Assembly (NCBI GenBank): GCA_947501605.1
Contig: CANMWZ010000033.1
Span: forward strand, 1 to 48,780
Source of the DNA: Planctomycetota bacterium
GTDB lineage: Bacteria; Planctomycetota; UBA1135; UBA2386
Reading direction: 5' to 3'
Length of the DNA stretch: 48,780 nucleotides
This document shows positions 9,797 through 43,849 of this stretch, piece by piece. How positions within the stretch are numbered: position 1 is the first letter of the stretch; each line of letters opens with the position of its first letter. The notes under the pieces are model-generated. The model did not search any database, was not told the DNA's origin, and worked only from the letters and a program-made list of their open reading frames with translations. A program made the position numbers and the translations under genes.

Positions 9797-9805
9797 CGCG
9801 CGCCC

Positions 9806-9832: not shown

Positions 9833-9858
9833 CGCACTGGGCGGTAGAGACGCGGAGT

Positions 9859-9885: not shown

Positions 9886-9894
9886 AGCGCGCCC

Positions 9895-10731: not shown

Positions 10732-11756
10732 GTCTGTCCGAACGCCTGCTCGAACGCGGCCTGTTGCCCGACTTCGTCATTCGCTACGGCATCCGTCGCC
10801 TGCTCCGCGACCGCTTGCGCGTCCAGCACGTGGACGATCCCGAACGAGTACAGCGCGACCTCATGGCGCACATCGCTGCCTGCGCCACCGCGCCGATTGC
10901 GACGGCGACCAAGGCCGCCAACGAGCAGCACTATGAGGTGCCAGCGGCGTTCTACGCCAAGGTCCTCGGCCCGCATCGCAAGTACAGCTCAGGCCTCTGG
11001 GACGACACTGCGACCACGCTGGCGAGCAGCGAGGCCAAGATGCTCGCAACGACTTGCGAGCGGGGCCAACTCCAGGACGGCATGCACGTCCTCGACCTCG
11101 GCTGCGGCTGGGGCTCGCTGTCGATGTGGATCGCGCGGCACTACCCAAACTGCAAAGTGCTCGGCGTCAGCAACTCCAACAGTCAGCGGCAGGACATCCT
11201 CGCGCGCGCGCAGAGTGAAGGGCTGCACAACCTCGAGATCGTCACGAATGACGCCAACCACTTCACGCCCGGACGCACGTTCGACCGCGTGTTCTCGGTC
11301 GAGATGTTCGAGCACATGCAGAACTGGCACCTCCTGCTGGCGCGCATCGCCAGCTGGCTCGCGCCCGAGGGCCGCATGTTCTTGCACATCTTCACCCATC
11401 GCACGGCGGGCTACTCGTTCGTAGCAGACGGCGACGGGGACTGGATGGCGCGTCAGTTCTTCACCGGCGGACAGATGCCGGCCGACAGTCAGATCCTCTA
11501 CCTGCAAGACCACATGGCAGTCGAGGAACACTGGCGCGTCAACGGCACGCACTACCAGCGCACCAGCGAAGCGTGGCTGGTCAACATGGACCGCGCTCGC
11601 GACGAGCTGTGGCCGCTGTTCGAACAGACCTACCAAGCCCGGGCAACGGCCATGTGGCACGGCTGGCGCACGTTCTTCATGGCGTGCGCGGAGTTGTGGG
11701 GATTTGACTCTGGCCGCGAGTGGTTCGTATCGCACTACCGGCTCAAGAAGCGCTGA
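10728..11756 (+). CDS. SAM-dependent methyltransferase, cfa / coclaurine N-methyltransferase-like
   Basis: ANEQHYEVP, LGPHRKYSS, LDLGCGWGSL, SVEMFEHM, WRTFFMACAELWG; GTGA overlap with DUF1295. Confidence 0.92.
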   Translation: MSLSERLLERGLLPDFVIRYGIRRLLRDRLRVQHVDDPERVQRDLMAHIAACATAPIATATKAANEQHYEVPAAFYAKVLGPHRKYSSGLWDDTATTLASSEAKMLATTCERGQLQDGMHVLDLGCGWGSLSMWIARHYPNCKVLGVSNSNSQRQDILARAQSEGLHNLEIVTNDANHFTPGRTFDRVFSVEMFEHMQNWHLLLARIASWLAPEGRMFLHIFTHRTAGYSFVADGDGDWMARQFFTGGQMPADSQILYLQDHMAVEEHWRVNGTHYQRTSEAWLVNMDRARDELWPLFEQTYQARATAMWHGWRTFFMACAELWGFDSGREWFVSHYRLKKR

Positions 11757-11811
11757 ACCGGATCGCAGCGCGCGGGCCCAGGAACGCCCGGCGCAACGTT
11801 CGATCGCCCGT

Positions 11812-11849
11812 CTTCAGGGTCTCTGCTTCAGGGTCTCCCTTTCAGGGCC
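11812..11849. repeat. Three tandem 14-bp-period direct repeats (core TTCAGGG)
   Basis: CTTCAGGGTCTC at 11812 and 11826, TTTCAGGGCC at 11840, between convergent genes. Confidence 0.6.
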
Positions 11850-11855
11850 GCGTCG

Positions 11856-12923
11856 TCAGCCAATCGGCGCCAGGCGGTGCGCCGCCAGCACAGCGGCTTC
11901 GGCGTCGCCAGCGCCAGCCTCGGCGCCGAGTCGGAGGTGCAGGTCCGGTATGCGTGCGAACGGTGCACCACCCAGGAGGATCGGCGATTTGCCGTGAAGG
12001 TCCCGATCGCGCAGCTCGACCAGCGACCGCGCTTGCCCCAGATGCAGCAGCATGGTCGCGGACACGGCGAGCAGGTCGCACGGCCGATCGCCGATTGCCC
12101 ACGGCAAGTCGCTCGCTGGCAGGTCGGCGCCGAGGTTGGTGACGCGATATCCCGCGAGTTGGAGCCGCTGCGCGATGACGCGGACGCCGAGTTCATGCAG
12201 ATTGCCCTGCACGGCGAAGGCAACGACATGTGGCGCGGTCGGGGACGGTCGTGCAACCCGCTCCTGCAACATCAACAACACCTGCCCAGCAAGCTGGCTG
12301 GCAAAGTGCTCGTCGGCAATCGGAGCTTCGCCGAGCATCCACATGTGGCCGACTTCCCGTTGCGCAGGCGCGAGCACATGGTCATGGATCGCCGCAACCG
12401 AAGCGCCTCCGCGAATCGCCTCACGAACGATATCCAGCGCTTCGTCGCCGTTGCCTTCGAGCATCGCCAGCAAGAAGCGCTGAGCTACGAGCGTGTACGC
12501 CGAGGGTGCTTCGATCGGACTCGGCGGCACGCTGGGCACCGCGAGCGCGGACCGACGCGCGAGCGCGAGCACCGGCGCGATCACGACCTCGGCGCCTTGA
12601 GGTAACTCGCGGACGAGCACCTCGCACAACGCATCAATCGTGGCCGCAAGGTAGTCATCGGCAACGCCGCGGCGCGACAGGGCTGTGCGGTACCAAACCA
12701 CGGCGTCGGTGAACAGCAGGGGCGCGTCCACCGCGATGGCCTCGGCGAGCTGGAGGATCCGTACTTCGATGTCCGCGTCCGGCGAGGCGAAGGACTCTGG
12801 CAGCGCGGTCATCACGAAGCCGGGGCGCTGCACCTCCATGGCAACCACGGTTGCGCGAGCGAGGGCGCGCGCCGAGCGACGCAACATGTCGGCGACACTT
12901 CGGGGATTGGCCATGGCGAGCAA
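11856..12923 (-). CDS. Cobalamin (B12)-binding domain protein without HTH (start may be TTG 12923 or ATG 12914)
   Basis: VGHMWMLGEAPIADEH (W...EH), GNLHELG (His ligand), LGADLP, LLAVSAT, ILLGG as in CarH/LitR/AerR-type B12 modules; helical N-terminal domain. Confidence 0.88.
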   Translation of the reverse strand: MLAMANPRSVADMLRRSARALARATVVAMEVQRPGFVMTALPESFASPDADIEVRILQLAEAIAVDAPLLFTDAVVWYRTALSRRGVADDYLAATIDALCEVLVRELPQGAEVVIAPVLALARRSALAVPSVPPSPIEAPSAYTLVAQRFLLAMLEGNGDEALDIVREAIRGGASVAAIHDHVLAPAQREVGHMWMLGEAPIADEHFASQLAGQVLLMLQERVARPSPTAPHVVAFAVQGNLHELGVRVIAQRLQLAGYRVTNLGADLPASDLPWAIGDRPCDLLAVSATMLLHLGQARSLVELRDRDLHGKSPILLGGAPFARIPDLHLRLGAEAGAGDAEAAVLAAHRLAPIG

Positions 12924-12932
12924 AGGTCAGGT

Positions 12933-12959
12933 TTCGTCGGCCCGAGTCCCTGGGATGCA
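12933..12959 (-). promoter_or_regulatory. Putative ECF promoter TGCATCC-N16-CGAA (B12-binding gene)
   Basis: One of four identically spaced copies. Confidence 0.8.
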
Positions 12960-12961
12960 CA

Positions 12962-12988
12962 TGCATCCAATGGCGGAACTGCGGCGAA
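12962..12988 (+). promoter_or_regulatory. Putative autoregulatory ECF promoter TGCATCC-N16-CGAA (sigma/anti-sigma)
   Basis: Back-to-back with the previous copy; points toward the sigma gene. Confidence 0.78.
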
Positions 12989-13242
12989 ACCACCGGGCGA
13001 TACAGGCAACCGCCGCCCAGAGGCGTTTCTGACGATACACGCCGCCAACCATGCCTTCGCCCCAGATTCTCGACACTAGCGCCCAGTGCGCGCAGAGGAT
13101 CACGGGACCAAGCGGCGCGCACCCTCGCCGCGAGTCGCGCGGTAAAACGCGCCGTCGATCGGCTGGCATGACGCGCTCCCCGTCGAAGTCATCGTGCACA
13201 ATGGGCGACTCGCCGCTAGCTTCTCCGCCCCGCAATCCTCGC

Positions 13243-13803
13243 ATGGACACCCCACTGCTCGCACAGATTGCCGCCGGCCGCCCTGGCGCCGTCGAGAACT
13301 TCTTGCGACAGCACGGCAACTCGGTTTGGGGCCTCGCCCGCCGCTTCTGTCGCTCGGCCGAAGATGCCGAGGACGCGACGCAGGAGATCCTGGTCGAGAT
13401 CTGGCGCAACGCCGCCCGCTACAACCAAGACATGGGCAGCGAACTCACGTTCGTCATGACCATCGCCAGGCGGCGGCTGATCGACCGCACGCGCCGACTG
13501 GGTCGCCGACCAACGGTCGAGCTCTTGCAAGAAGCCGGCGATCTGCCGGCAGCGCCGCCCAAAGTAGATGCCGCTGAGTTTGACGACGAAGTTCGACGCG
13601 CTCAGGCCGCGATGCAGCAACTGCGGCCCGAACAGCGTCAAGTACTCGAGCTCGCGCTGACCGACGGCCGCACCCACCACGAGATCGCCATCTCGATCGG
13701 CATTCCCCTCGGCACCGTGAAAAGCCACGCGCGACGTGGCTTGATCCGGCTGCGCGCACTTCTTGGTGTCCAAGGGCCGCACGATGAGGGGGCTCAGTCG
13801 TGA
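13243..13803 (+). CDS. ECF RNA polymerase sigma factor (SigK-like)
   Basis: DAEDATQEILVEIW, TIARRRLIDR, THHEIA..IGIPLGTVKSHARRGL; start could be 13201. Confidence 0.95.
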   Translation: MDTPLLAQIAAGRPGAVENFLRQHGNSVWGLARRFCRSAEDAEDATQEILVEIWRNAARYNQDMGSELTFVMTIARRRLIDRTRRLGRRPTVELLQEAGDLPAAPPKVDAAEFDDEVRRAQAAMQQLRPEQRQVLELALTDGRTHHEIAISIGIPLGTVKSHARRGLIRLRALLGVQGPHDEGAQS

Positions 13804-14537
13804 ACGAGAACCAGAAGGAACCACTGGCCGACGCGGTCTTGGACGCCTGGGAACTCGGCGCCCAGGTCGACTACTCGGTCGCCGGCGCCGACCTCGTCGC
13901 GCGACGCGAACTGGAGCAGTTGGAGTCGACAGCGATTCTCGCGGCCACGGCGATCGCCGTGGCGCAAGCAGCCAAGGAGCCGATGCGGGCCGCCTTCGCG
14001 ATGCGCTTGACCGAGCTTGGACGCGAGTTCACCGCAGCCGCAGCACCAAGGGCTACTGCCGGGCGACGCCGTCCGATTGGTGCCTCGTTTTGGCTGGGAC
14101 TCGCCGCCGGCTTTGCAGTCGCATGGCTCGGCTTCGGCCGCACCGCGGACGCTGCGCCCGAGACCCTTCGTGAACAACTCATGCAGCAGGCTCGCTACGC
14201 CTCGGTTGCCTGGCAGCCTGGGTCGAGCCAAACGCACGGCCTGCCCCACGGGGATGTCGTCTGGTGCAAAGAGCGCCAGGAAGGATATCTCCGGATCGAG
14301 GGCCTCGAGCCATTGCCCGAAGGCCACCAGTACCAACTCTGGATCGTCGACGCCAACCGCGTCGGTGCCCCGGTGGACGGTGGACTGTTCGACCTCACGC
14401 GTACGGGCGAGCACGTGGTCCCGATCCAAGCCCGACTCCCGGTCAACGAAGCCAAGGCCTTCGTCGTGACCGTTGAGCAGCGCGGCGGCGTAGTTGTCAG
14501 TGAGCAGAAGGACGTCGTCGCCATCGCGACTCTCTGA
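13800..14537 (+). CDS. Membrane-anchored anti-sigma factor, RskA-type C-terminal domain
   Basis: Coupled to sigma (GTGA); TM FWLGLAAGFAVAWLGF; YQLWIVD, PVDGGLFD, AFVVTVEQRGGV. Confidence 0.88.
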   Translation: MNENQKEPLADAVLDAWELGAQVDYSVAGADLVARRELEQLESTAILAATAIAVAQAAKEPMRAAFAMRLTELGREFTAAAAPRATAGRRRPIGASFWLGLAAGFAVAWLGFGRTADAAPETLREQLMQQARYASVAWQPGSSQTHGLPHGDVVWCKERQEGYLRIEGLEPLPEGHQYQLWIVDANRVGAPVDGGLFDLTRTGEHVVPIQARLPVNEAKAFVVTVEQRGGVVVSEQKDVVAIATL

Positions 14538-21937: not shown

Positions 21938-23566
21938 TCAGCGGGTTCGCGTCAGCAACTGCTCGCGCTGCCACTTCGGCAAGTAGAAGTCGACCAGGAA
22001 CGGGTTCCAGGCGCGATCCTCCTGCGCGAACGCGTCCATCTCCACGTACTGCCCGGTGAGATCTTGCACGCGGTGGTCCGGGTCGTCCTGGAGATCCGGA
22101 GCCTGCACACGCAAACCGTGCCGCTCCTCATAGCGAATGATCGGGTAGAGCTTGCCGCTGTCGCCGTCATCCTGGCGCAAGACCACCGAACGCGCCCGCC
22201 GAAGCACGTAAATGCGGTTCTCTTCGTTGCGCCGGTACATCGTCGCCAGGTGGATCGAGAAGACGTCCGACTTGGTCGTGCAGAACAACTTGAAGTCCGT
22301 CTTCACCTGCGGGTCCGCCAGCTGCGCAAACTCCTCGATCTGCTCGAGGTCGTCGACGGTCGCGAAGAACCGTAGCTTTGGCTCTTCGCCAAGCTGCAGA
22401 TCACCGAACGCGAATGCGTCGGCGTTCCCACCCGTAGCAGACTCCTCTTCGGCTTCCGGATCGGGCTCGTTGCGGAAGCGGAGGATGGCGTCAATCACGC
22501 CATCGGGGATCGCAGCCTCGGGCATGATCGCGCGCAACACCGGCCGCGGCGCCAGATTGATGTTGATGCGAATACCCTCGCCCAGAGGTTGGACTGCGGG
22601 TGCGTTCGGATCCGTGCTCGGCGCGAGCCCCCCGCCCGGTGCGCCCGCGCTTTGGGCACCGCCTGCACCCGCAGGCGCCGGGCTGCCGCCCTGAGCGGGA
22701 GCGCCGGATGCCGGGGCCCCACCGCCCTGCTGCGCCTGCCTGCGTGCCACCTTCTCGGGATCGCCTGGATCGATCTGCAACGACGTCCACACCGTGAGAA
22801 CGGACTCGAGTCCGCGCAGGACGCGACCGTCGATGACCTGATCGTAAAAAAGCTCCTCGGTGACGTCGGGCAGCAACAACAGCTCATCGACGTGAACCGG
22901 CAGCGCGAGCTCGGAGACCTTGGTGTCGTCGCTCTTCAATGGCGGCTTTGGCAGGCGATCACTGCCGGAGCGGCGCGCCCATTCTTCGATCGCTCGCACG
23001 ATGCGGTCGGCCTCGGAGCTCCCGAGGTCCTTGTCTGTGTCTTCGCGCAGCGAGTCGAGCAGGCGAATCAACTGATCGCGGCTGAACTCGGCCCACTTCG
23101 GGTCCGGGCTCCACAGCGATAGCAGGTTGAACTTCGCGTTCTCAGCCTCGACCCAGTAGTAGGTCGTCAGGTCGTTCTCGGCACGCGATTGTGGCTTGGC
23201 CCAACTGTCCCGACTGCTGTCGCAGGTGGTGCTGGGATCGGCCTCCTCGCCCTCTTCGCCAGCCTCAGGGGATTGGCCGCCGGGCGCCGTGACGCCGCCT
23301 GGCGCCCCCATGGCGCCCAGTGCACCGCCGCTCTCTTCGCCGGCGGCGGCGCCCGCCAGATCGGTCAGCAGCGTGTCCTCGACTTCGGCCAGCGTGTTGT
23401 CCATCTGGTTGCGCATGCGCGCAAGCAGGGCGTCGTTCTCCCCGGTTACGCGCAGCAAGCGCGCGGAAACCACCAGTTCGGCGACGAGGATGTAGAGCAG
23501 AATGCTGAAGATCAGCGCGAGGATCAGGGCAATGCCCTGCTGCTCGTTGCGTGCTCGGAACGTCAT
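21938..23566 (-). CDS. GspK-like minor pseudopilin, enlarged and acidic
   Basis: QQG|IALILAL prepilin-type site then hydrophobic helix; ENAKFNL, DELLLLP, ININLAPRPVL, SDVFSI motifs. Confidence 0.78.
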   Translation of the reverse strand: MTFRARNEQQGIALILALIFSILLYILVAELVVSARLLRVTGENDALLARMRNQMDNTLAEVEDTLLTDLAGAAAGEESGGALGAMGAPGGVTAPGGQSPEAGEEGEEADPSTTCDSSRDSWAKPQSRAENDLTTYYWVEAENAKFNLLSLWSPDPKWAEFSRDQLIRLLDSLREDTDKDLGSSEADRIVRAIEEWARRSGSDRLPKPPLKSDDTKVSELALPVHVDELLLLPDVTEELFYDQVIDGRVLRGLESVLTVWTSLQIDPGDPEKVARRQAQQGGGAPASGAPAQGGSPAPAGAGGAQSAGAPGGGLAPSTDPNAPAVQPLGEGIRININLAPRPVLRAIMPEAAIPDGVIDAILRFRNEPDPEAEEESATGGNADAFAFGDLQLGEEPKLRFFATVDDLEQIEEFAQLADPQVKTDFKLFCTTKSDVFSIHLATMYRRNEENRIYVLRRARSVVLRQDDGDSGKLYPIIRYEERHGLRVQAPDLQDDPDHRVQDLTGQYVEMDAFAQEDRAWNPFLVDFYLPKWQREQLLTRTR

Positions 23567-23636
23567 GGGTCGGTGCGCTAGCTGGGCCGGCGCGAAGGTG
23601 CCTCTGACGCGGCATCCTAGCCGTTCTTCCGTGCGA

Positions 23637-25139
23637 CTACTGCTCACGCTCGGTCGGCGAACCACGATCGTTGACGATGCGCGGCGTGATTTGAAACGCG
23701 ACGCTGGTTTCCTGCCGGCTGGTCGAGGTCGAGCGGAACAGGAACCCGAGCAACGGAATGTCGCCGAGGATCGGCACCTTGGTCTCGCTCTGAAAGGTCG
23801 TGACCGACTTCAGACCGCCGATCAGAAGGCTGTGGTTGTGCTTCAGGTAGACGGTTGTGACAGCGCTGCGTTGGCTGGTGATCGGTGTCACTACCGGCGT
23901 CGTGTTGGCAAAGCCGGTGACCGCCGAGACGTCGGCGTAGAGCTGGAGCAGCACCGTGTCCTTGCCTGCGATGACCGGGATGATGTTCATCTTGACCCCC
24001 ACAGGCTTGAAGTCGATTTCGGCTGCGACTTCAGTGCCGAGCTGATTGATCTTCGCTCGCGGGAACGGGATCTGGGTCAGCGTCGAAATCGAGGCGACGC
24101 CACCATTGCGCACGACCAGCTTCGGCGAACTGGTGATGTCGGCGACGTTGTTCGCTTCGAGCGCCTGCAGCACCAAGTTGAGTTCCCAGCTGTCATGAAT
24201 GCCACCCAGGGTGAACAAGCCGACATCGGTCACCGGGCTGGCACCCACCACGGGTTGGCGCAACGGGAAGATCGAGGTATAGGCCTGCACCAAGGCGCCG
24301 CTGCTCAGGTTTTCGAGGTTCGGCGTGCCTGCGTTCACTCGCGAGACACCGAACGCGAGTGCATCGGCATTGGTGTACTCGATGACCTGTACCGTGATCT
24401 CGATCTGCGGGATGCTGGTGTAGAAGAGATCGAGCGCCCCCTCGAACGCGGTCAGTCCCGCCGCCGTCGCGGTGACGAGCAGCAGCGCGACCGGAGTCGA
24501 ATTGGCCACATCGACCTGCATCGGCGCACCGGTGACCGCCGAGCCCTGTGACGGCATCGGCGGGTCAGCAATCCTGGCGCCGGTGAGCTTCTCGAAGTCT
24601 GCTAGGTAGGTGATCTCGATTTCCCGGCCGCGAAGCATCCGGCCCAGGATGCTGTGGCTGTCCGCACCACCTACCTTCGTGCCTGGAGCCGGAGCGGTGA
24701 TGGGCTTTCCGGCTTCGAACACCGGCTGTGGTTGCTCCGGCCGAATCTCGTGGATCAGCTTGAGAAAGGTCGGGCCGAGGTCGCCAACCAAGAAGTACTG
24801 CTTCGTGATCTCGCCACCCGGACCGATGAGAATGCTCGGGCCAAACAGACCACGGAGATGCGCTTCGACTTCGCTGCGCGTCGGCTGGCCCTGGGGTTCT
24901 TGCGCATCCAGCGCCGGTGCAACGCCCACTCCGCGCGCATTGCCGGGCATGTCCGACAGACCCACAACCAGGGAACCGTTGGTCGAGGCGTCGGCGGCGC
25001 GCATGCCATCCACACTCGCCTGCACATCCATCGCGTCGACGCGGTGTGCAGGAGCACTGACGCAGCCGCTCAGCAGAGTGACAAGGACCGCAGACCGCCA
25101 CAGACACTCTGCGTCAGCACCGAGGATCAGGCGGATCAC
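23637..25139 (-). CDS. Secretin (type II/III secretion family), short, with lipobox
   Basis: PQIEITVQVIE, LQALE..ITSSPKLVV.NG, VGVKMNIIP, LLIGGL, KVPILGDIPLLGFLFR, ITPRIV; LSGC lipobox. Confidence 0.92.
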   Translation of the reverse strand: MIRLILGADAECLWRSAVLVTLLSGCVSAPAHRVDAMDVQASVDGMRAADASTNGSLVVGLSDMPGNARGVGVAPALDAQEPQGQPTRSEVEAHLRGLFGPSILIGPGGEITKQYFLVGDLGPTFLKLIHEIRPEQPQPVFEAGKPITAPAPGTKVGGADSHSILGRMLRGREIEITYLADFEKLTGARIADPPMPSQGSAVTGAPMQVDVANSTPVALLLVTATAAGLTAFEGALDLFYTSIPQIEITVQVIEYTNADALAFGVSRVNAGTPNLENLSSGALVQAYTSIFPLRQPVVGASPVTDVGLFTLGGIHDSWELNLVLQALEANNVADITSSPKLVVRNGGVASISTLTQIPFPRAKINQLGTEVAAEIDFKPVGVKMNIIPVIAGKDTVLLQLYADVSAVTGFANTTPVVTPITSQRSAVTTVYLKHNHSLLIGGLKSVTTFQSETKVPILGDIPLLGFLFRSTSTSRQETSVAFQITPRIVNDRGSPTEREQ

Positions 25140-25516
25140 AGGTTGGCGATGACGTCGCTAGTCAGGTCCGTTGGAATGCGACCGTTGTCGTTGGTGATGT
25201 CTCCCGTTCGCACCACCAGGTCCTTGCTCGACTTCGTCGCTGCTGCCTGCGCCGCCGTACGGATCCGCCGGTCCATTTCGCCAACCAGCAAGATGTAGCG
25301 CGCTGACCCACGACGAACCGCGTCAGCCTGAATCGTCTGCCATTCGACTGTGGCTTCCCGGACCCGCTGCTCGTCGATGGTTGCCGGCGCCGAGGTGTTG
25401 CTGGCGCTGCCAAAGTAGACCACCGCATCCGTTCGGAGGTCGACTTGCGCGATGGCAGAGGCGGCGAACATCAGCAAGCCGCAGCAGATCTTGACGAGTC
25501 GAGACGAGATGACCAT
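25136..25516 (-). CDS. Small exported protein with Skp/OmpH-like termini
   Basis: Signal peptide ending AIA; RIRTAAQAAATKSSKDLVV...DLTSDVIANL resembles the Skp C-terminus; GTGA overlap with secretin. Confidence 0.65.
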   Translation of the reverse strand: MVISSRLVKICCGLLMFAASAIAQVDLRTDAVVYFGSASNTSAPATIDEQRVREATVEWQTIQADAVRRGSARYILLVGEMDRRIRTAAQAAATKSSKDLVVRTGDITNDNGRIPTDLTSDVIANL

Positions 25517-25589
25517 GACCAATACCCCCGAGGTGTCGCCCAGAGCAGCCAGAGTCGAAAACTCAGACTGCCGCGGACGAAACCGGACT

Positions 25590-25605
25590 AGCAAGGGTTG
25601 TGCCT
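25590..25605 (-). promoter_or_regulatory. Sigma-54 (-24/-12) promoter AGGCACAACCCTTGCT
   Basis: GG-N10-GC with GGCAC and TTGC, ~75 nt upstream of the 25516 start and just downstream of a sigma-54 activator gene. Confidence 0.8.
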
Positions 25606-25724
25606 CAGATTGCGCCATGGGACTTGGCCATTTCCCGAAGTTGTTGTCTTCCCGTCGTTTCTGATCCTTCCATAATTACTCTGGCCAGTCACGCCGGGGC
25701 TCCATCCAGGCCGATGGCCAGAAC

Positions 25725-28700
25725 TCACTTAGAATCCGCCACGCCCCCAAGCGGCCCATGGCTAGATGTTGGCCGATAACGAGCGCCCCGGCGGCTGCCG
25801 ACGCGCTCGGCAAGGCCGAGATCGACAAGCTGCTGCAGGTCACGGAGACCCGTCCGATGCGAGATACCGGTGCTCTCCATGTGGTCCTGGGTAGCCATTG
25901 AACCAGCGGCAACCAGTCGCTCGTAGAGGAGACGAACCCGGGGCGGCAGCGCGACCAGCACCACATCGGGCAGCGGCGGCAGAACTGCGGGCGCGCCAAC
26001 GGCAGCGGGACTCACCGAGGCCTCGGTCGGTTCGGCCGGGGGCCCTGGGACCACGACCGGTGATTCCACTGTCACCGATACGGCGCCACCGACCTCGATG
26101 GTCGAGGGACTCGCTGGACTTGGCACGGTGGCAGGCGCCCCTTGCGTCGGCGCCTGCGACACGACGGCCGAACCAGAACCTGGAGCTACCTGGCTTGACG
26201 ACGGCAGTGCCGCCATGACGTCGCGGCGCTCGACCAGCTCGCCGCCGGCCAAGACCATCGCGCGGTAGACCGCGTTGCGCAACTCGCGGATGTTCCCCGG
26301 CCAGTCGCGGCGGAACAGGTCGTCCATGGCATCGGTAGTGAAGGCTCGCACCCGACTCTCGCCGGACGCGACCACTTCACTGCGGAACTGCTCGACCAGA
26401 GCCGGGATCTCCTGGCGCCGATCGCGCAGCGGCGGCACCTGAACGATGATTCCCTGCAGCCGGTAGTAGAGGTCCTCGCGGAACCGACCATCGGCAACCA
26501 TCTGGCCGATGTCGCGGTTCGTTGCGGCGACGACGCGCACGTCGATCGGCACCGGATCCGCGCCGCCGACTCTATCGACCTCGCGTTCCTGCAGCACCCG
26601 CAACAGCTTGACCTGCACGTCGAGCGGGATCTCCCCCACTTCGTCCAGGAAGATCGTGCCGCCATTGGCCTGCTCGAACTTGCCGATCTTGCGCCGATCG
26701 GCACCCGTGAACGCGCCCTTCTCGTGACCGAACAACTCGCTGGCGAGCAGAGTCTCAGACAACGCCGCGCAGTGCACCTTGACGAGTGGCCCACCCGCAC
26801 GGCGACTCCAACGGTGCAGCAGGTTGGTCAGCACCTCCTTGCCCGAACCCGTCTCGCCCAAGAACAGCACAGCGATGTCCGTCGGGGCGACGCGACGCAT
26901 CGTGCGATACACATCGCGCATCGCCGAACTGACTGCGGTGATGCCCGCACGCCGCAGGCTGGCGTCGACTTCGACCTCGACCGCGACCGGGGTCAGCGCC
27001 GAGCCTGATGCCAGCCGATCGCGCAGCACGTCGAAGAGGAACTCCGCCGACGCAGCCTCTTCGGGAAAGACTGCTAGCGCACTCGTCGGCAGCTTGTCCT
27101 CGATGTCGCTTTCGGGGGCCTGCTCGACCACGCGCTGCCACGATTCGAGGATGCGCAGCACCAGCGCTTCGCCGCTCGAACGGTCGCTCTTCGGCGCCAG
27201 CAACTGAAACTGACCCGACCCCGAATGGCACAGTAGAGCGCCGCGAGGAAGGTGCTCGCGGAGCACTGCCGCGAAGCGGCGGAGCCCACGTGGGCGACCA
27301 GCACCATCGCCCAGCCCAAGCGCCAGTAGGACCAGCGGCGCACCGCGCTGCTGCGCGACTGCCACTTCTTCGGCAACACGACGACGGAAGTAGTCGGGCG
27401 CAAACGCACCGGTCAACGGATCCTGCACTGCGTGTCGATACAGCTGCGCGTTGTCGAGCGCGACTGCAGCCTGCGCCACAACCGTCGCCAGCAGTTGCAG
27501 GTCGATCTCCTTGGGGCTCGCCCCTTGGAAACCCAAGAGCACCGCGCCACGGCAGCGTCCGCCGACCAGCAGCGGAATGCCGACAATGCTGTGAATGCCG
27601 GGCAGGCGCTGCAGCAACTCGCTGAACACGATCGGCAGTCGACACAGCGAGAATGGCCCGAGTGCTTGCGACAAGAACGAGAAGGTCAACGCCAGCTCGA
27701 GTCGTTCGGTTTCGAGGCCGCCATGCAACTCGACCTTGTTGGTATCCGGGTCGATGACGGCAATGCGCACGCGATCCGCCGGAACATGCTCCTCGCAGAA
27801 CCGTCGCAGCACCGCGAGCGTGTGATTGCTGTCCAGTTGCGCCGAGAGGTCGCGCATCGCTCGGTTGAGCTTTTGCAGGTCGTACAGCCGCCCTTGCAGG
27901 TCGCCAGCCATCTTGTTGAACGTGCGCGACAGCTGGCCGAGCTGGCCTGGCTCGTCGACCGGGACACGCGCGTCGAGCTGACCCTCGGCGAGCAGTTGCG
28001 CCCCGCGCTCGATCTGCTCGATCGGGCGACTGATGCGATGACTGACGACGAACGACACGAACGTCGACAGCACGAGCAACAGCCCACCGACCAGCACGAA
28101 GAAGGCGCGCACCGGAATGCGACCAATCGACAAATCGAGCGTCGCCGGCAAGTCGGGCTGTGCAAGGACCAGTAGCGCTCGAGGTGTGTCTTGCAGATCG
28201 CGCAGCACTTCACAACCACACAGCCAGTCCCCGTAGGCCGAGGACGCTCGCTCAACCACCGACTGCCGCTGGTCCATCGCGGCAAACATCGCCCGCTCGC
28301 GACTCGCCATGCTCGCGGGATCGCGGCCGTGCAACAGCAACGCGCTTGGTTCGATGCGCGTACCCGCAACCTCGATTGGGTAACCGCGAGGGTCGCACAA
28401 CATGACCGACGCACCGGGTGCAAGAGCACCGAGCAGATCCGCTCCGAGTGGCCGGGCCACGGTCAGCGCCAGCGTGCCGCCGCGCACGGGAGCCTCGCTG
28501 CGAACAGCAATCACGACCGTGCCCCAGTGCACGTAGACACCCGGTTCCAAACGAGCCGGCGCCTCAGTGCTCGCGAGCCTCGTGTCGCCGGCAACCGTAC
28601 TGAGTCCCTGATCGGCGCGGCCAGCGGGCATTGGGATCCACTCGAGCTTCAAGAAGCCGCCTTTCCACTCGGGCGGCAACTGTCCGGCGAGGAGCTGTTG

Positions 28701-31517
28701 CAGCGCTGGCAAGACCTGCGCGACTCGTTCCTTGAACTTGTCATCCTCGACCGAGCCGGAGCGCTTCTTGTAGAGCTCGGCAAGATCCTGCAACCACTGG
28801 CCCGCCGAACTCCGCAAGCGCTGCATCTGGTCGGTGAGCTGACCGGTGGCGTTCTGCACCTGTCGACGCATGCCCTCTTCTTGGTCGGTAACGTGACCGC
28901 GATCGATGACCTGCGCCAAGACGATCGACAAGACGATCAACGGCGCCAGCACCGCGACCGACAGTACGGCCATCAGGCGCGCACGCAAATTGGCGACCGC
29001 GGCGAGCAACTCGCCAAGCAACACCACGAGCAGCGGCGCCCCGAGCAAACACAGTAGGAGCCCCATTCGGCTCGCGCCGAGGTTGGCCGCAGGTCGGTCG
29101 GGATCGGTGACTGCGACACCGAGCACCGCACCGTCCCAACCCTCGCCGGCAAGTGGGATGTAAACTGAAGCGCGCGACGCGCCGCCCTTCGTCGTGACCA
29201 AATCGGGCACGGTCGGTGCCGCGTGTCCGGCGGCATCCCGCGGCAGCACTGCGACTTCCTGCCGCGACTCGGCCGACAAGGTGGACTCACTGAGTCGACC
29301 ATCGCGGTAGATCGTCAAAGCGGTACCCGCGAGGGCCTCGCGCATGTCGTCGCGCAACCTGCGGTCCTGACCTTCGCGCAGCAACGGCGAGTCCTCGGGA
29401 TCCTGCGGTGCCGCGGCCTTGTCGCTGCCAAACACCACCGAACGAAACCTCATGCGGTAATCCGCGAGGTTGCGGAACTCGATCGCCTCTAGTTCGGCAC
29501 CCGCCGGCAGCTCGAGAACCGGCAGCACCATGTTGATGCGGCGCTCCTTCTGCTCATCGACCCAGCTGAATGCGATCGCAGCCGGCGATCCTTCGGGTGG
29601 CTGATCGCGCGTGTTGTGCACGACCAACTCGTAGAACATGCTGACTTGGTGCTCGAGAGTCAGCGTCCGCGACGGCAAGCCGTTCTTGAAGTGCAGCAGG
29701 ACCTCGGCAACGGTCGCGCCAGGGTTGGCCGTCGGCACTCCGGGATACGTCGCGCGATAGAACAGCCAGAGCTTGGTGCACGGTTCCTGGCTCGGCGGCA
29801 CGGCGATACGACGCACCACTCCAGGGCCCAATTCGAGGCCAGCATCACGGGGATACGGCCCGCGCAGATCTGTGAGCACGCCGTCGAGCGACGGTTGCCC
29901 CAAGAACAACGGTTCCGCTGGTTCGTCGCGCTGACGCAACAGGGTGAGCCCGACCAGACGAACATCACCGCCCTGCGGCATGCGAATACCGAGAGTCCGC
30001 AGGGGGCCACGCAGCGGAAAACGATGCCAATCGGTCTCGCTCGGCTCGCGCGACCACACGCCACCCGGCTGGTAGTCACCGGCAAAATAGAGGCTCTCGA
30101 CACGTGCCGTGCTCGATCCGGCGTTGAGCTGCAACTCGATCTGCGGCTGCAGGTCACCATCCGGCGGAACCTGGAGCACTGACGCGAACGGGCGGCCGAG
30201 CACCACATAGAGCTCTTCGCCGACCAACGGTGGGTCGAACTGGAAGGTCTCGACTCGCTGCGCATCCAGCGGCAACCAGTAGGGCCGAACCTGAAACGGT
30301 TCGTCTGGATACTCGCGAACCGAACCGCCGAACTCATCGGCCGCGAACTGCGAAAGGAATCTGTAGCTGGTGTACTTCTGTCGAGCGACCGACTTGCCAG
30401 CGAGCAAATCCATCAACGCACGGTCACGACTCGCACCGCGGTAACTCGCGAGCGTGCCTTGCTCGAGTTTTTCAACGAGGCCGCGAACCGTCGCCACGCT
30501 GGTCGCGAGTTCTTCTCGTTGCGCGCGGTCGCGGTAACCAACCCACAGTTCGGGCAGGAACAGCCCGACAGCGAAGAGAATGACGCCCGCGGCCAGGACG
30601 AAGGGACGCAGCCACCGGACCCGCCCAGCAAGACGAGGCCACAGCCTCAGGGTCAGAAACAACATGCCGGCCGCGAACAGCGGCACCAGCAGATAGCGGA
30701 GGTCGGAGAGCATCTCGAGCGTGAGCAGGCGCGCCGGTAGCTCCGACACGAGCGGCCCTTCCCCCTGCAGATCCAGGCGACCGTGAACGTCGGCGGTCAG
30801 CGGATCGGCACCGGCCCATGCCAACCGGGTCGCCTCCCCGCTTGGCGCGTCGACGTCGACCAGAACCACATCGCACACCACCGTCAGCTGACCGGGGCGG
30901 ACGCAGGCGAGTTGGTGGAACGGGATCGCCGCTTCGAACTCATACACACCCGGACCGACTTGACGGCCGACAGCGGCGAACCCGGTCAGTGCGGAGCCAC
31001 TTTGGCGCGGCGCGTTCGCGCGCGGCTCGATTACGAGCCAGGGACGGAGGTCCGAAAGGGGCGACAGCGACAGTTGCACTTCCTCGCCCGCAGCCGCTGT
31101 CGAATCGGGACCGCCTGGGGCCAGTCCGAAGTACAGGTCGAGGTGGTCGCCACCCCCACCCGCGCCGACGCCGTGGTATTGGGCAACGTCATCGCGAACG
31201 CGACCGGCCAGATAGAGGGTGTTGGCATCGTAGGCAAACTGCAGTTGACAGGACGCATCCTCCGACCCAGTCCAGCCAGCCGCTGCTTCTTCAAGGAGCT
31301 GTTCGCGAGCGGCCAGTGTGACCTGTGGCCGCCAGGCCCATTCCGTCAAGTTCCCGTCGACGGTTGGAGCAAGACGGATTCGGGGGACGGAGGCCACTGC
31401 CGTGGAAGGCACAGGACCCTCGTTCTGAGCGGCCAAATCGGCCACGCCGACGGCAAGTCCAATCAGGACCGATGGCCAAATCCGGCACGACTGCGCAATT
31501 CGCCACAAATTCGCCAT
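25725..31517 (-). CDS. Giant membrane-anchored sigma-54-dependent activator (signal, CBM9/DOMON-like, 5 TM, HAMP, GAF, degenerate GGDEF, AAA+, wHTH)
   Basis: [55 protein letters not shown]...GQL...FNKM; DPLTG; N-terminal VDGNLTEW...[15 protein letters not shown]...YEFEAAIP; start uncertain. Confidence 0.9.
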
Positions 31518-31699: not shown

Positions 31700-34600
31700 T
31701 CAGCGACGATCGCGCCGCGGCCCTCGCGGTCCGCGCGGGCCACGACCACCCGAATCTGGACGGCCGATCAGGCTGTCGGCATCCTCCAGATCCCCGATGT
31801 CTTGCCCCTTGATCGGGGGCGGCTCGACCAGGTCATCATCGGTCGGGTCGAACTCGCTCATCGGCAACTTGGAGGGCGAATCACCGCGGGGGCCACGCGA
31901 GCCCTCGTCACGAGAACGCCGTGCTGGGCCACGTTCGAGGCGATCCGTCGGGGCATCGCCGCCAAGGCCGCCGACTGGGCGGTCACCACGGACGGGGCGC
32001 TCGACGGGAACTGGCGCGTCTTCGCGAACCGGACGCTCGGGCCGACCAGCGTCACCCCGGAAGGGGCGATCCTCGCGCGGAGCGCGTTCATCGCGAACCG
32101 GACGGTCCTCGCGAACCGGACGATCCTCGCGCGGCCCGCGTTCCGGACGAGCGAACTCGCTGCGGACCGGACGGTCTTCGCGCGGCGCACGTTCCTCTCG
32201 CATCGGCCGGTCATCGCGGACCGGGCGATCCTCGCGCGGCGCACGCTCGTCGCGCACCGGGCGATCTCCCCGCGGTGCACGCTCGTCGCGGACCGGGCGT
32301 TCCTCGCGCGGGGCACGGGCGTCGCGCAGCGGTCGTTCCTCGCGCGGTGCACGCTCATCGCGCACCGGACGATCCTCGCGCGGGGCACGCTCATCGCGCA
32401 CCGGACGATCCTCGCGCGGGGCACGGGCGTCGCGTACCGGACGATCCTCGCGCGGCGCACGCTCGTCGCGCACCGGTCGATCTTCGCGCGGCGCACGCTC
32501 CTCGCGCATCGGACGATCCTCGCGCAGTGCACGCTCCTCGCGCACCGGACGATCCTCGCGCGGTGCACGCTCGTCGCGCACCGGACGATCTTCGCGCGGG
32601 GCACGTTCATCGCGCACCGGACGATCTTCGCGCGGTGCACGGTCAGCGCGCGGACCGCGGTCCTCACGGTGGCTACCGCCATCCTCGCGGGGCGCACGCT
32701 CAGGACGCGGGCTACGCTCTTCGCGCGGTGCACGAACCTCGGTCGGGCTGCGATCGTCACTCGGGGCGCGGTCTTCGCGCGGACCGCGATCGTCGCGGAA
32801 ACCACGCTCAGGACGCGGCGCCTGCTCCTCTCGCGGAGCACGCTCGGGGCGATCCCCGCGCGAACCGCGGTCGTCGCGCGGCGGGCGCGACGAGCCGTCG
32901 CCGTCGACCACCGGTGCATCCCCGCGCTCGGCCAGGATCACGGCCTTACGGCTCAACTTGATCTTGCCGAAGTCGTCGATGCCGATGACCTTGACCTTCA
33001 GCGTGTCGCCGATGCGGACGACGTCGGTGACCGACTTGATGAAGCCATCCGACAGCTCCGACACGTGCACAAGACCCTCTTGGCCCGGCAGGATCTCGAC
33101 GAACGCACCGAACTCCTTGATGGCCGACACGCGACCTTCGTAGATCTGGCCAACGCCAACTTCGGCCGTCATCGCCTTGATGTGCTCGACGCAGGCCATG
33201 ACCTTCTCGGCGTTGACGCCGGTCACCGTGCAGAGGCCGCCGTCCTCGATGCTGATGCGCACCTCGAACAACTCCTGCATGCCGCGGATGTTCTTGCCAG
33301 CCGGGCCAATGATCATGCCGATCTTCTCTTGCGGCACGGTCACAGACTCAAGGCGCGGCGCATTCGGGCTCAACTGCGAGCGCGGCTCGCGCAGCGTCTT
33401 CAGCATCTCGCGCAAGACGTGCAAGCGGCCTTGGCGCGCCTGCTCGAGCGCCTGCTTCAGGATCTCGCGGGTTAGGCCCTCGCACTTGATGTCCATCTGC
33501 AGCGCGGTGATTCCGCGGCCGGTGCCGACGACCTTGAAGTCCATGTCGCCGCATGCATCCTCGCTGCCGAGGATGTCGGACAGGATGGCGAACTTCTTGC
33601 CCTCCATCACGAGACCCATCGCGACGCCCGCGACCGGTTGCTTGATCGGAACGCCCGCGTCCATCATCGCAAGCGTCGCCGCGCACGCGGTCGCCATGGA
33701 CGAACTACCGTTCGACTCGAGGATCTCGCTGGTGATGCGGATGGTGTACGGGAAGTCCTCGCGCGACGGGAGCACCGGTTCGACACCGCGCTCCGCCAGC
33801 GCGCCGTGACCGATCTCGCGGCGACCAGGTGAACCCGTGCGCTTCACTTCACCGACGCTGAAGGGCGGGAAGTTGTAATGGAGCAGGAAGCGCTTCTTGC
33901 CCTCCGGCATCAGGCCATCGACCATCTGCTGATCGTCGATGCCGCCGAGGGTCACGATGCCGAGAGCCTGCGTCTCGCCTCGCGTGAAGAGCACAGAACC
34001 GTGCACGCGCGGCAGCACGCCAACCTCGATCGTGATCGGGCGGATCGACGTGTGATCGCGGCCGTCAGCGCGACGACCCTTGAGGATCGACTGGCGCTCA
34101 CCGTCCTTGATGGTGTTGCCGATGATCTCACCGGTGACCTTGCCCCACTTCATCTTCTCGGCATCGGTGCTGCCGGCCGGGGCTGGGAACGCCTGCGTTG
34201 CCGCTTCCTTGGCGACCTTGATTGCAGCGCTGCGCTGCTGCTTCGAACCCGGCGTCAGCGGGGCGCGACGCAGTTGGTCGCCGAACTGCGATTCGATCGC
34301 AGCGACGAGTTTCTCGTCGAGCTTCGGCGGAGTGAACGGCGCCTTCTGGCGGCCGGCGAGAGCGCGCAGTTCTTCGATCAGTGCGGCGACGTCGCGCGCG
34401 GTCTTGTGGCCCAGCTCGAGCGCTTCGAGCATGACCTCTTCGCTGACTTCCTTGGCGCCGGCCTCGACCATCACCACCGCGTCTTCGCTGCCGGCAACGG
34501 TCAGGTTCAGCTTGTTCTCCGGCGATTGGATCTGGCTCCACAGCGGGTTGATGACGAGCTTGTCATCGCGCATGCCGACGCGGCACATGCCGAGCGTCGT

Positions 34601-35263
34601 CCCATGCGGAATCGAACTCAGTGCCAGCGCTGCAAAGCATGCAATCGCGGCGACGACGTCTGGATCGTTCTCGCGATCCGTCGCAAGCACCTGCGACAAG
34701 ACTTGGACCTCGGCCTTGTAGCCGTCTGGGAACATCGGCCTCACCGAGCGGTCGATGAGGCGGCAGCCAAGGATCTCCTTGGTCGTCGGCCGGCCTTCGC
34801 GCTTGAAGAAGCCGCCGGGGATCATGCCTGCGGCCGCGGTCTTCTCGCGGTAGTCGACGGTGAGCGGGAAGAAGTCGACGTGGTCGCCGGCCTTCTGACT
34901 CTGTGCGGTCGCAAGAACCACGGTTTCGCCGTACGAGACGACCACGGCGCCGTCGGCCTGACGCGCCATTCGGCCCGTCTCGATCGTCAGCTTGCGACCG
35001 CCGATCTCGCGCTCCACGCGAATCGCCTTCGGAATGCCACCCGAGCTCACAGGCACGGGGGCGGGGGCGGCGCTGGTGCGCGCTGCGGGGGTAGTGCGCG
35101 CGGCCGGTTCGGCGGCGCGAGCGGTGCTCTTGGTCGACGGCTCTGCCGCGGCGGCCTCGGGCTTCTTGGTGCGCGGGCGTGCGCCGGCGCTAGCGCTGCG
35201 GGTGCCACTGCTCTTGCTGCGGCTGGTTTGAGGGGAGTCGTCGGTCTTCTTCTTGCTTGCCAT
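31700..35263 (-). CDS. pnp: Polyribonucleotide nucleotidyltransferase with N- and C-terminal low-complexity extensions
   Basis: [67 protein letters not shown] and S1 domains. Confidence 0.98.
32165..32632 (-). repeat. Coding tandem repeat in pnp: 26 x 18-nt units (36-nt higher order; [12 protein letters not shown])
   Basis: Counted in the translation; degenerate units flank the array on both sides. Confidence 0.95.
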
Positions 35264-35328
35264 TCTCGTTCTCGATGTGCCGCCTGCCTCGTTGAAACGG
35301 GCGGGTCAGCTTGGTCTCGGTCTCTTGG

Positions 35329-35474
35329 CCGTGCGTCACCCCCTCCTGGGGCCGTTGCACGGTTGCGGGCGGTTGCGTTGGTGCGATCGCCCTGCAGGTC
35401 GTCGGTATCCGCGCTCAAGGAGCGAGGAGCCGGTCCCACTACGGGCGCGCACCCTCCTGGTGCTCGTGCGCCCG
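35329..35474 (-). promoter_or_regulatory. Two hairpins with AGGAG loops in the pnp 5' region
   Basis: mRNA CCCC-AGGAG-GGGG (35329-35362) and GCACC-AGGAG-GGUGC (35442-35474), each with a further outer stem. Confidence 0.5.
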
Positions 35475-35636
35475 CATCGGCTGCGCACCGGCATCGCCGG
35501 CTGTGGTGCCATCTTGGCGCCAACGCAGCAGTTTGCCGCAGCCTCATTGCGAGGTGCGGTCGCATTGTCAGTTGGTTCTATCCTTCGTGGCTGCTCGACG
35601 CCGCGGCCGTTGCCGTAGCGCCCTCGCCCGGGCTTG

Positions 35637-35906
35637 CTACCTGCGCAGGCCCAGCTTGTCGGCGAGCTGGTTGTATCGATCGCGCGAGACGCGCTGCAGG
35701 TACTTCATCAGCTTGTTGCGGCGGTTGACCTGGAACAGGAGGCCGCGGCGGCTGGCGTAGTCCTTCGGGTGGCGCTGCATGTGCTTGGTCAGGTCCTTGA
35801 TGGACGCGGTCAGCACAGTGACCTGGACTTCGGGCGAACCCGTGTCGTTGTCGTGGCGCTTGTTGGACTGGATGAGCTGCTTCTTGGTCTCGGCGGAAAG
35901 TGGCAT
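35637..35906 (-). CDS. rpsO: 30S ribosomal protein S15
   Basis: 89 aa; HDNDTGSPEVQV, HPKDYASRRGLL, LGLRR; canonical position before pnp. Confidence 0.98.
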   Translation of the reverse strand: MPLSAETKKQLIQSNKRHDNDTGSPEVQVTVLTASIKDLTKHMQRHPKDYASRRGLLFQVNRRNKLMKYLQRVSRDRYNQLADKLGLRR

Positions 35907-42145: not shown

Positions 42146-43849
42146 CTACTTGCCGCCGCCAGGAAGCACGTCGCCAGGAACTGGTGCGTCGCCGCCGACC
42201 GGAGTTTCGGCGGGCGCGTCCTTTGGTTTCACGAGATCGGTGCGCGCCGGCTTCAGCTTGGTGAACAGCGCATTGTCGATCACGTAGTACCAAGGCCCGA
42301 AGCGTCGAGCGAGGCCATCGGCTTCCTTCTTGCCCTCCGCGATCTTGCTGTCGAACTCCCGCCACTGGTCAGCGCTGCGTCGCAGCTCGTCCTCGCCAGC
42401 CAACAACGCCGCGACAAGGTCTTGGCCCATGCCAACGCCGCCCTCGACTTGATCTGGCCCCTTGCTGAACAGCTTGTAGCCCTCGCCTTCGAGAGCGTAG
42501 ACGAGGTCTTGGCCCCACGGGTCCTGCTTCAACTCCGTCAACAACGCTGCGTCCGTCTCGTTCGGCTTCTTCGTCAGCTCCTGCAGCGACGGGGGCACCT
42601 TGCCTTCGTTCTTCTGCTTGTAGAGCTCGATCGCGTTGACGATCGCTTCGATCTGCTGCTGCGCCTCGCGACGCTGTGCAATCACATCGTCCGCCAGCCG
42701 CATGCCGCTCGGCTTCTGCAGCAGCGATTCATCGAACTCGGCGGAGACCATCAAGTAGCGATTGTTGCCCGCGAGCGGCGTCGGTCCCTGTTGGCCGTCC
42801 TTGGGGGCGTCCGGCTTGGCATCGCCTTCACCCGAAGTGATGGCCTCGCCCTCGCCGTAGACAATCTCGCCGAAGCGCAACGTGTAGCGCACGCCGTTCT
42901 TGCTCTCGAACGAGAGGTCGCCTTCGTTGCTGCGCAGAGATCCGTCGCGCAGAAGGAAGTAGCCCTTGCTCTGCAAGTTCAGCGCATCCTGCAGTGCCGG
43001 CCCGCCCTGCAAACGAGCATCGAGACCAGCAGGCTTCTTGCGCACACCGACGATCTTGATCTGACCGAGCGACTCGGTGACCTCGCGGAGCTTGTCCTCG
43101 TTGGCGGTGTCGGTCTCAGCCGTGCCTTCGACGATCCACTTCGACGCCTCGTCCTTCCTCACGATGATGCGATCGCCTTCCTTGATCTTCTGGGCCTGCT
43201 CATCGACCGAGTAGTTGTCGAAAACGACTTTGGCAATGTCCCAGGTCTTGGCCTTCAGCAGGTCCGTCTCGATCCAATCGGCGAACTTGGTCGACAGCTG
43301 GTTGTCGAACTTGGCAGCGTAGACTCGCTTCTTGCCCGGCAGGCGCACGAAGTGCATCCCGGGGCTGCCCTCGAGTTCCTTGCCGATGATCAGCGTCGCG
43401 AGCTCTTGCCCGCTGGCGTTCTTGAACACGACCTTGGTGCCGCGGCCCTTGGTGTCGAGGCTCTCCTCTTCGGGGTCGACGACGCCGCACTTGCCGTGAT
43501 CATCGACGATGTCGCTGATGACGCGGTCGCGCTGCATCCCGAGCATCATGGTGGCGCTCTTCGCCATTCGCGTCTTGGCGTCGGCCGGGTAGTTGCCGTG
43601 CGACGGGATGGTCCAGATGCCCTTGTCGTCGCGGCGCACATTGAACTGCCGGATCTCGGTGCTGCCGTCGTCGTACGACGCAACCCGCAACTCGGTCGCC
43701 AAGGACGCATCCGTGAACTCGGGGAACAGCACCTGCCCCTCGTCCGAGAACAGCGTGTTGTCGACCTTGCCGGGACCAGTCAGAGTGGCCAGGACACACA
43801 GCAGCGCCGAAGCGCCAACGAAGGTGATCGTCTTGATGGATTCGTTCAC
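42146..43849 (-). CDS. DUF4340 protein with inserted GspG-like domain
   Basis: N-terminal TM, WTI...YPAD, LIIGK, FVR, LSTKFADW; position after GldG; internal DPWG..Y..LFSKGPD. Confidence 0.82.
   Translation of the reverse strand: MNESIKTITFVGASALLCVLATLTGPGKVDNTLFSDEGQVLFPEFTDASLATELRVASYDDGSTEIRQFNVRRDDKGIWTIPSHGNYPADAKTRMAKSATMMLGMQRDRVISDIVDDHGKCGVVDPEEESLDTKGRGTKVVFKNASGQELATLIIGKELEGSPGMHFVRLPGKKRVYAAKFDNQLSTKFADWIETDLLKAKTWDIAKVVFDNYSVDEQAQKIKEGDRIIVRKDEASKWIVEGTAETDTANEDKLREVTESLGQIKIVGVRKKPAGLDARLQGGPALQDALNLQSKGYFLLRDGSLRSNEGDLSFESKNGVRYTLRFGEIVYGEGEAITSGEGDAKPDAPKDGQQGPTPLAGNNRYLMVSAEFDESLLQKPSGMRLADDVIAQRREAQQQIEAIVNAIELYKQKNEGKVPPSLQELTKKPNETDAALLTELKQDPWGQDLVYALEGEGYKLFSKGPDQVEGGVGMGQDLVAALLAGEDELRRSADQWREFDSKIAEGKKEADGLARRFGPWYYVIDNALFTKLKPARTDLVKPKDAPAETPVGGDAPVPGDVLPGGGK

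Follow-up and report, generated by a model that had tools for sequence, protein, structure and literature searches.

A membrane-anchored sigma-54 activator and its likely two-gene target unit, a mini-Skp and a short secretin, in Planctomycetota

What does a giant sigma-54 activator gene control when the genes that follow it on the same strand encode a small Skp-like protein, a short secretin and a GspK-like pseudopilin? The question is raised by a contig of a Planctomycetota bacterium (assembly GCA_947501605.1, contig CANMWZ010000033.1), whose 48,780 nucleotides are called here the window. Five elements lie on its minus strand: the activator gene (25725..31517; 1930 residues), predicted to encode a membrane-anchored one-component sigma-54 enhancer-binding protein; a -24/-12 promoter motif (25590..25605; predicted +1 near 25579); the gene for the small protein, termed mini-Skp (25136..25516; 126 residues with a signal peptide, ATG at 25516); the short secretin gene (23637..25139; 500 residues, lipobox LSGC), which overlaps the mini-Skp stop codon; and, after a gap of 70 nucleotides, gspK, encoding a GspK-type minor pseudopilin (21938..23566; 542 residues). 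All five were confirmed where a sequence-only reading of the window had placed them, and the unit, again in line with that reading, contains no gene for an ATPase, a platform protein or a major pilin. It had further proposed that an extracytoplasmic, possibly glycan, signal switches on all three downstream genes as an alternative pore and tip module. Our analysis points to a smaller system, in which the activator likely switches on only the mini-Skp and short secretin genes, and the adjacent gspK, for which a separate promoter is predicted, probably encodes the standard tip protein of the cell's type II secretion. Taken as a whole, the model is an activator-induced second outer-membrane gate that likely serves core type II secretion, to which we assign a probability of about 0.5.

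The promoter motif, AGGCACAACCCTTGCT at 25605-25590, has GG-N10-GC spacing and lies 119 nucleotides past the activator stop codon and 89 nucleotides before the mini-Skp ATG. In the window alone the motif was not above chance, with 3 one-mismatch matches found versus 1.37 expected and 12 of 100 shuffles reaching 3. Its significance therefore comes from positional conservation across loci. For the survey, each protein of the locus was searched in 60 relatives and 56 regions were fetched; 46 non-duplicate loci out of 78 from a GspK scan were added as a held-out source. Of 103 loci, 26 were truncated where a contig or region ended, and 77 were callable. Of 42 activator loci, 33 carried GG-N8-TTGC in sense orientation upstream of mini-Skp, compared with 5.0 expected and 2 on the antisense strand; none of the five activator-less loci that could be placed in the discovery set had it. 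A stricter pattern was found in all 24 held-out activator loci (1.7 expected) and in neither of the two held-out activator-less loci (L169 and L170). The promoter pattern was absent in 10 of 12 activator-less loci overall, and in one genome that has lost the activator (G018) the -12 half is kept while the -24 GG is gone. Judged by this footprinting, the promoter is genuine, and transcription from it is predicted.

When the genome was scored with a matrix built from 30 relatives, 262 candidates emerged, and the mini-Skp promoter came top both in site count and in score. The leaders of gspGHIJ and gspDEF and five other pilin or activator leaders showed no sigma-54 motif reaching the scores of the training set; since gspGHIJ and gspDEF have no such promoter, the regulon looks limited to the mini-Skp/secretin unit. 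Scans for sigma-70-type promoters and terminators gave nothing above shuffles. The stretch was present in 7 of 11 listed RNA runs, always as contigs; runs X1 and X2 show even coverage of the region and might contain DNA. In one RNA study, two contigs over mini-Skp and the secretin start end at 25583 and 25588, which is 4 and 9 nucleotides upstream of the predicted +1, and the contigs of the other study stop short. Because these ends come from a single study and are inexact, they were not counted as support. No RNA contig spans the secretin-gspK junction, so the runs are uninformative there.

We then counted 6-mers without bias in 30 intergenic regions, and TGGCGA came out on top, in 20 loci versus 3.2 expected. 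The half-site TGGC[GC][AG] occurred 147 times in the 42 activator loci (25.8 expected) and 4 times in the five activator-less loci (2.4 expected). In the held-out set it occurred 80 times in 24 activator loci (14.8 expected) and once in loci without the activator (1.4 expected). The half-site extends to TGGC[GC][AG]AWW, with the unselected positions A, W and W matching in 97, 116 and 110 of 138 sites, and same-strand spacings peak at 10-11, 21-23, 33 and 42-44 nucleotides, which are whole helical turns. In the window, predicted activator binding sites of this kind occupy 25625..25775 on the minus strand (starts at 25775, in reverse orientation, 25741, 25720, 25687 and 25630). Five more lie over the activator's own 5' end (31430..31516, minus strand; 31516, 31505, 31478, 31444 and 31435), and 26 pnp-proximal regions held 49 half-sites versus 22.2 expected; autoregulation of the activator through these putative sites is possible. 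On these sequence patterns, we consider a circuit in which the activator binds the half-sites and opens the sigma-54 promoter to be quite probable.

The gene order supports the pairing of activator and target unit. Relatives of the locus proteins carry Planctomycetota labels, and a word-based protein search returned at least 77 proteins, every taxon-labeled one from Planctomycetota. Synteny across relatives, which the sequence-only reading had named as a check, held up: among the 77 callable loci the order was activator-Skp-secretin-gspK in 61, pnp-Skp-secretin-gspK in 12 and pnp-gspK in 4. In these loci the mini-Skp and secretin genes were separated only at contig edges, and no locus retained the activator without both of them. 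Activator presence switches five times along a GspK tree built by a quick method from 47 rows, and three activator losses (G018, G032 and G036) are nested inside activator-bearing clades; no activator ortholog was found elsewhere in those three genomes. Ten activator-less genomes searched further yielded no ortholog, although one search had no positive control and completeness varies among the genomes.

The activator itself has the domain order CBM9/DOMON, jelly-roll, dCache, HAMP, GAF, degenerate GGDEF, AAA+ and DeoR-like winged helix-turn-helix (HTH). Hydropathy predicts a signal peptide-like N-terminus and five helices (residues 275-293, 306-324, 820-838, 848-866 and 1140-1158), which is consistent with three outside-facing regions. 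An AlphaFold model of residues 35-1140, built from 34 sequences, had a pLDDT (predicted local distance difference test) of 81.8. In this model the first predicted periplasmic domain (about residues 40-252; 30762..31400, minus strand), assigned from structure and profile matches, resembles CBM9 structure 1i82 (Z 16.7, root-mean-square deviation 3.0, 182 aligned residues) and the haem-binding DOMON 2ivf (Z 13.6). Family alignments confirmed the labels given to the locus proteins, with matches in 33 of 34 members for CBM9_1 (PF06452), 36 of 62 for OmpH/Skp and 25 of 31 for T2SSK. The second predicted periplasmic region (about residues 374-705; 29403..30398, minus strand) is a jelly-roll-like beta-sandwich that matched 7wuw (Z 10.8), CBM8 7t7z (Z 8.4) and EphB2 7s7k (Z 8.2), although it was barely tested as a separate domain; an Atlas search with residues 330-815 gave no usable match. 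The third is a dCache-like sensor domain (about residues 868-1127; 28137..28916, minus strand) immediately N-terminal of the last helix and HAMP, matching 4xmq (Z 11.8) and LuxQ 3c38 (Z 11.7).

Beyond the last helix, also on the minus strand, lie matched HAMP and GAF domains and a GGDEF-like domain (together 27048..28046). The last has GGDEF homology at E 8e-18, but its GG(D/E)EF active-site motif is degenerate or absent. The sigma-54-interacting AAA+ domain with its lid (26190..26936, minus strand) matched Sigma54_activat (PF00158) at E 6e-67 and has an intact GAFTGA; so do all 22 held-out activators that were readable and the majority of the others. A low-complexity linker leads to the C-terminal winged HTH of the DeoR/DIP2311 type (25770..25910, minus strand), for which the DIP2311-like match (E 2e-5) is below the cut-off in the window copy; HTH_DeoR is matched in several orthologs, and the domain is not Fis-type.

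The sensor architecture outside the membrane agrees with the earlier proposal of an extracytoplasmic signal; the suggestion that the signal is a glycan fared less well. CBM9 domains hold sugar in a clamp of two tryptophans, which we take to be W71 and W175 of 1i82. The window copy has neither clamp-aligned tryptophan, with G at the W71 position. The W71-aligned tryptophan is retained in many distant orthologs and missing from the window's clade, the second clamp tryptophan is not conserved, and the activators of one family (f2) have no CBM9 domain. Since the window copy is without the clamp and the HAMP input is directly adjoined by the dCache domain, a glycan is one possible signal among several, not favored over a small-molecule or envelope cue.

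The mini-Skp, of about 105 mature residues, is Skp-like both by profile and by model (pLDDT 89.9). Its top structural matches are Skp, CC_1914 and the T9SS (type IX secretion system) protein SkpA, with Z 7.8 versus 3.7 for the best unrelated row. The model has only two helices (49-64 and 72-95) and an extra N-terminal strand, and the long coiled-coil arms of Skp are missing. An Atlas search with mini-Skp returned only unnamed Planctomycetota clusters. Pentatricopeptide matches to mini-Skp were rejected as repeat-summing artefacts.

The short secretin has a PF00263 core (E 1e-37), a lipobox that is retained in many orthologs, and a single N3-like domain. Its profile matches begin at the N3 region, with no match to N0-N2 or to an S-domain. 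The best profile is GspD, ahead of PilQ, MshL and RcpA, with 140 bits against a cut-off of 351. An unrooted FastTree analysis groups the short secretins of the order in a separate clade, apart from the GspD proteins encoded with gspE and gspF. Tandem duplicates of the short secretin gene occur in four genomes (L056, L057, L087 and L088), which suggests mixed rings.

GspK has a class III signal peptide without E5 and a T2SSK domain; its score against NF037980, 32.6 bits, is so far under the cut-off of 130 that it is a divergent member. It is the sole family-profile match in the genome. Other parts of a type II secretion system (T2SS) are encoded elsewhere in the genome, as the sequence-only reading had expected of the remaining T2SS or type IV pilus machinery: gspD-gspE-gspF on contig C6 and gspG-gspH-gspI-gspJ, without a K gene, on contig C3. 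By sequence reading, a gspC-like gene lies on C1 and the other minor-pilin clusters have their own K- or X-like gene; L and M matches are only PilM/N/O-like. Among 20 gspG loci from relatives (14 with D-E-F upstream), none had a GspK match.

A motif of the extracytoplasmic function (ECF) sigma factor type, GGAAG-N16/17-CGTC-NN-A, was first spotted by eye. It resembles the E. coli sigma-E promoter GGAACTT-16-GGTCAAA given in the accessible part of PMC1312014. Upstream of gspK it lies at 23603..23630 on the minus strand, with N16. Among 70 loci, 51 have the motif ahead of gspK, against 0.55 expected and 1 on the antisense strand; in three of the 51, pnp alone lies upstream. The strict form occurs near six genes of the genome, among them gspK, gspG and the gspC-like gene, and in relatives' loci the motif precedes gspG in 11 of 20 and gspD in 1 of 20. 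A second sigma-54 motif before gspK was found in 1 of 53 loci. In four loci gspK was retained after joint loss of the activator, mini-Skp and secretin. The single GspK, the K-less gspGHIJ cluster, the ECF-type motif and this retention alone speak against an alternative tip, and the cotranscription of gspK that had been assumed would be at most read-through. As a side observation, in G000 the predicted ECF-type regulon has sites at C1:193509, C3:282036, C13:28916 and C16:46183, with a gspC-like PDZ protein, gspGHIJ, a 432-residue lipoprotein and a 175-residue protein as predicted members.

The model can be stated in six steps. A ligand or envelope cue would be met by the dCache domain, by the CBM9/DOMON and jelly-roll regions, or by both, as their predicted folds suggest. 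The signal would pass through the last helix and HAMP to the GAF and catalytically dead GGDEF-like module, which, by analogy with their families, may restrain the AAA+ domain. The winged HTH would bind phased TGGC[GC][AG]AWW sites at two places, 25-170 nucleotides upstream of the -24 element and at the beginning of the activator gene, and the conserved GAFTGA is predicted to open the sigma-54 promoter at 25605-25590. The mini-Skp, with arms that seem too short to enclose the cavity of a general chaperone, may act as a dedicated chaperone or periplasmic adaptor of the secretin, replacing N0-N2, in analogy to T9SS SkpA. The short secretin would form a lipid-anchored, inducible second outer-membrane gate. 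Read-through may add GspK, the sole gspK being adjacent under its predicted ECF-type promoter and independent of the sigma-54 promoter. That the short-secretin pore is linked to type II secretion is, in our judgment, evenly balanced.

Several observations weigh against this reading. Four genomes with gspK and other secretins yielded no short secretin, so the core machine can do without it. Lacking N0-N2, a secretin is unable to dock GspC in the textbook manner. The rpsO-pnp linkage is as firm as the gspK linkage, so synteny by itself is no proof of function. On the regulatory side, 9 of 42 activator loci are without the strict pattern, including all three of family f8, in which the -12 element is weak; family f2 has weaker promoter matches only, and four f2 activators carry GAFSGA or GAYSGA. 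Family f7 has few half-sites of the defined form, with 3 over 4 loci. The activator-less L169 and L170 match the looser GG-N8-TTGC, making 2 of 12 activator-less loci overall. No activator ortholog was found in their genomes, so the promoter may also answer another of the approximately 18 activators, or be a relic. No terminator-like site was found from pnp to gspK, so read-through from rpsO-pnp is possible. The half-site and ECF-type motifs were first noticed in part of the data later counted; the independent tests are the held-out loci, the strict genome-wide ECF scan, the 20 gspG loci and families f2 and f8 only.

The main rival explanation keeps the same regulation and makes the secretin and mini-Skp a stand-alone gate for uptake, release or stress, or the gate of another pilus-type machine, with the adjacency of gspK being old synteny. 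The missing N0-N2, the clade separate from GspD and the loss in four gspK-keeping genomes fit this explanation, as do the separate promoter systems of gspK and the unit, the unrelated genes inserted between secretin and gspK in several genomes, and a genome with six secretins and several pilin clusters. The best profiles, being GspD and not PilQ, MshL or RcpA, and the linkage of secretin and gspK in 73 of 77 loci argue for the T2SS instead, and we regard the stand-alone gate as rather unlikely. The inserted genes (L043, L044, L045 and L047) encode carboxypeptidase-regulatory-domain repeat proteins, a UDP-GlcNAc 2-epimerase and a beta-lactamase-fold protein.

It is less probable still that the activator binds the half-sites mainly as a repressor or sigma-54-independent regulator, in the manner of TyrR or NtrX, or that a different activator drives the promoter. 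In favor of these readings are half-sites as near as 10-35 nucleotides to the -24 element, others at the start of the activator gene itself, the altered GAFTGA of f2, the weak -12 of f8 and the motif kept in L169 and L170. Against this stand the GAFTGA intact in every readable held-out activator and the absence of the promoter from 10 of the 12 activator-less loci.

Control of all three genes by the sigma-54 promoter, with pore and tip forming an alternative module that responds to glycan, is very improbable. The 70-nucleotide gap with no terminator-like site before gspK is compatible with such a module, and so are the CBM9 and CBM8-like folds with the W71-aligned tryptophan in many distant orthologs. 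The single GspK, the K-less gspGHIJ clusters and an ECF-type motif shared with gspG speak against it; gspK is also split off by inserts in some genomes and kept alone in four, and the sugar clamp is incomplete or, in f2, missing with its domain. Last, a chance motif with the unit expressed by rpsO-pnp read-through would fit the window's own statistics, the missing terminators and the activator-less genomes that keep the unit behind pnp, but it is extremely unlikely in view of the positional conservation, which is far over shuffles in the discovery and held-out sets alike.

All parts of the system fall into known families. One-component enhancer-binding proteins for sigma-54, of the NifA, NorR, FhlA and DmpR type, have the same GAF, AAA+ with GAFTGA and C-terminal HTH, upstream sites and an adjoining -24/-12 promoter; the activator here differs from them in its five predicted membrane helices, some 950 residues outside, HAMP, dead GGDEF-like domain and DeoR-type winged HTH, and falls under every NCBIfam cut-off among the matches listed. 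Lipoprotein secretins such as HxcQ, BfpB and TcpC and the short Tad secretins RcpA and CpaC have a lipobox and a reduced periplasmic part. Compared with these, the short secretin is closer to GspD by score, and no ATPase, platform or pilin gene of its own shares its operon. Like the T2SS minor pseudopilin GspK with gspGHIJ, the K-type protein here would complete a K-less gspGHIJ cluster, but it is encoded apart from that cluster and is 542 residues long. The nearest functional precedent, going by the accessible part of PMC6567927, is Pseudomonas XphA/XqhA, an orphan, environmentally regulated GspC-GspD pair that works with the core T2SS and is likewise a separately encoded extra secretin. As far as that part describes the pair, the present unit differs in having a Skp-like partner instead of GspC, no N0-N2 and an adjacent dedicated sigma-54 activator. 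In T9SS SkpA, according to the accessible part of PMC10994853, the Skp scaffold is reused as a structural part inside a secretion machine; mini-Skp has the fold in common with Skp/OmpH and SkpA and is set apart by its short arms, extra N-terminal strand and linkage to a secretin gene.

In the open literature searched (subscription papers and supplements lay outside the scope) we found no description of the locus, nor of the activator architecture, the winged HTH enhancer, or the pairing of mini-Skp with an N3-only secretin. The accessible part of PMC12316311 mentions sigma-54 and pilin-type genes in Planctomycetia only generally. With its activator, sites, promoter and two targets, the locus offers a complete testable circuit in an order of Planctomycetota that is uncultured and comes from freshwater and wastewater. 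Its activator design would join transmembrane sensing directly to a sigma-54 AAA+ domain with no phosphorelay, which raises the questions of how a membrane-tethered AAA+ ring reaches its enhancer and how an N3-only secretin uses a dedicated mini-Skp. The ECF-type motif, joining scattered gspC-like, gspGHIJ and gspK genes, suggests how a split T2SS may be co-regulated. A bolder version, that the five-span receptor-to-DNA protein reads periplasmic polymers or surfaces, fires sigma-54 and builds a secretin gate of a new type, seems doubtful to us; if true, mini-Skp would replace the secretin N-domains and the lineage would have a second, inducible route by which large cargo leaves or enters.

The host genome is 91% complete and carries rpoN in two copies, some 18 full sigma-54 activator domains and 11 T2SSE-family matches. 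The locus is bounded downstream by a convergent carA and upstream by rpsO-pnp (31700..35906, minus strand), a conserved anchor that is context outside the system. PNPase (31700-35263, minus strand) carries about 400 extra C-terminal residues with charged low-complexity repeats, and long PNPases of about 700-1150 residues are also common among relatives. By sequence reading, several distant families have a small cold-shock-like gene between pnp and the activator (L070-L074, L078, L082 and L083). Elsewhere in the window, 42146-47249 (minus strand) holds a Gld-like ABC transporter cluster with a DUF4340 protein fused to a pseudopilin-like T2SSG domain. A further cluster at 5414-14537 encodes CMAS methyltransferases, a desaturase, an amine oxidase, DUF1365, DUF1295 and B12-binding proteins, together with an ECF sigma factor and an RskA-type anti-sigma factor. 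In G000, C10:73794-85646 holds two long secretins flanking an ExbB/ExbD/ExbD and TPR cluster, and one of the two best matches the Amuc_1098 family.

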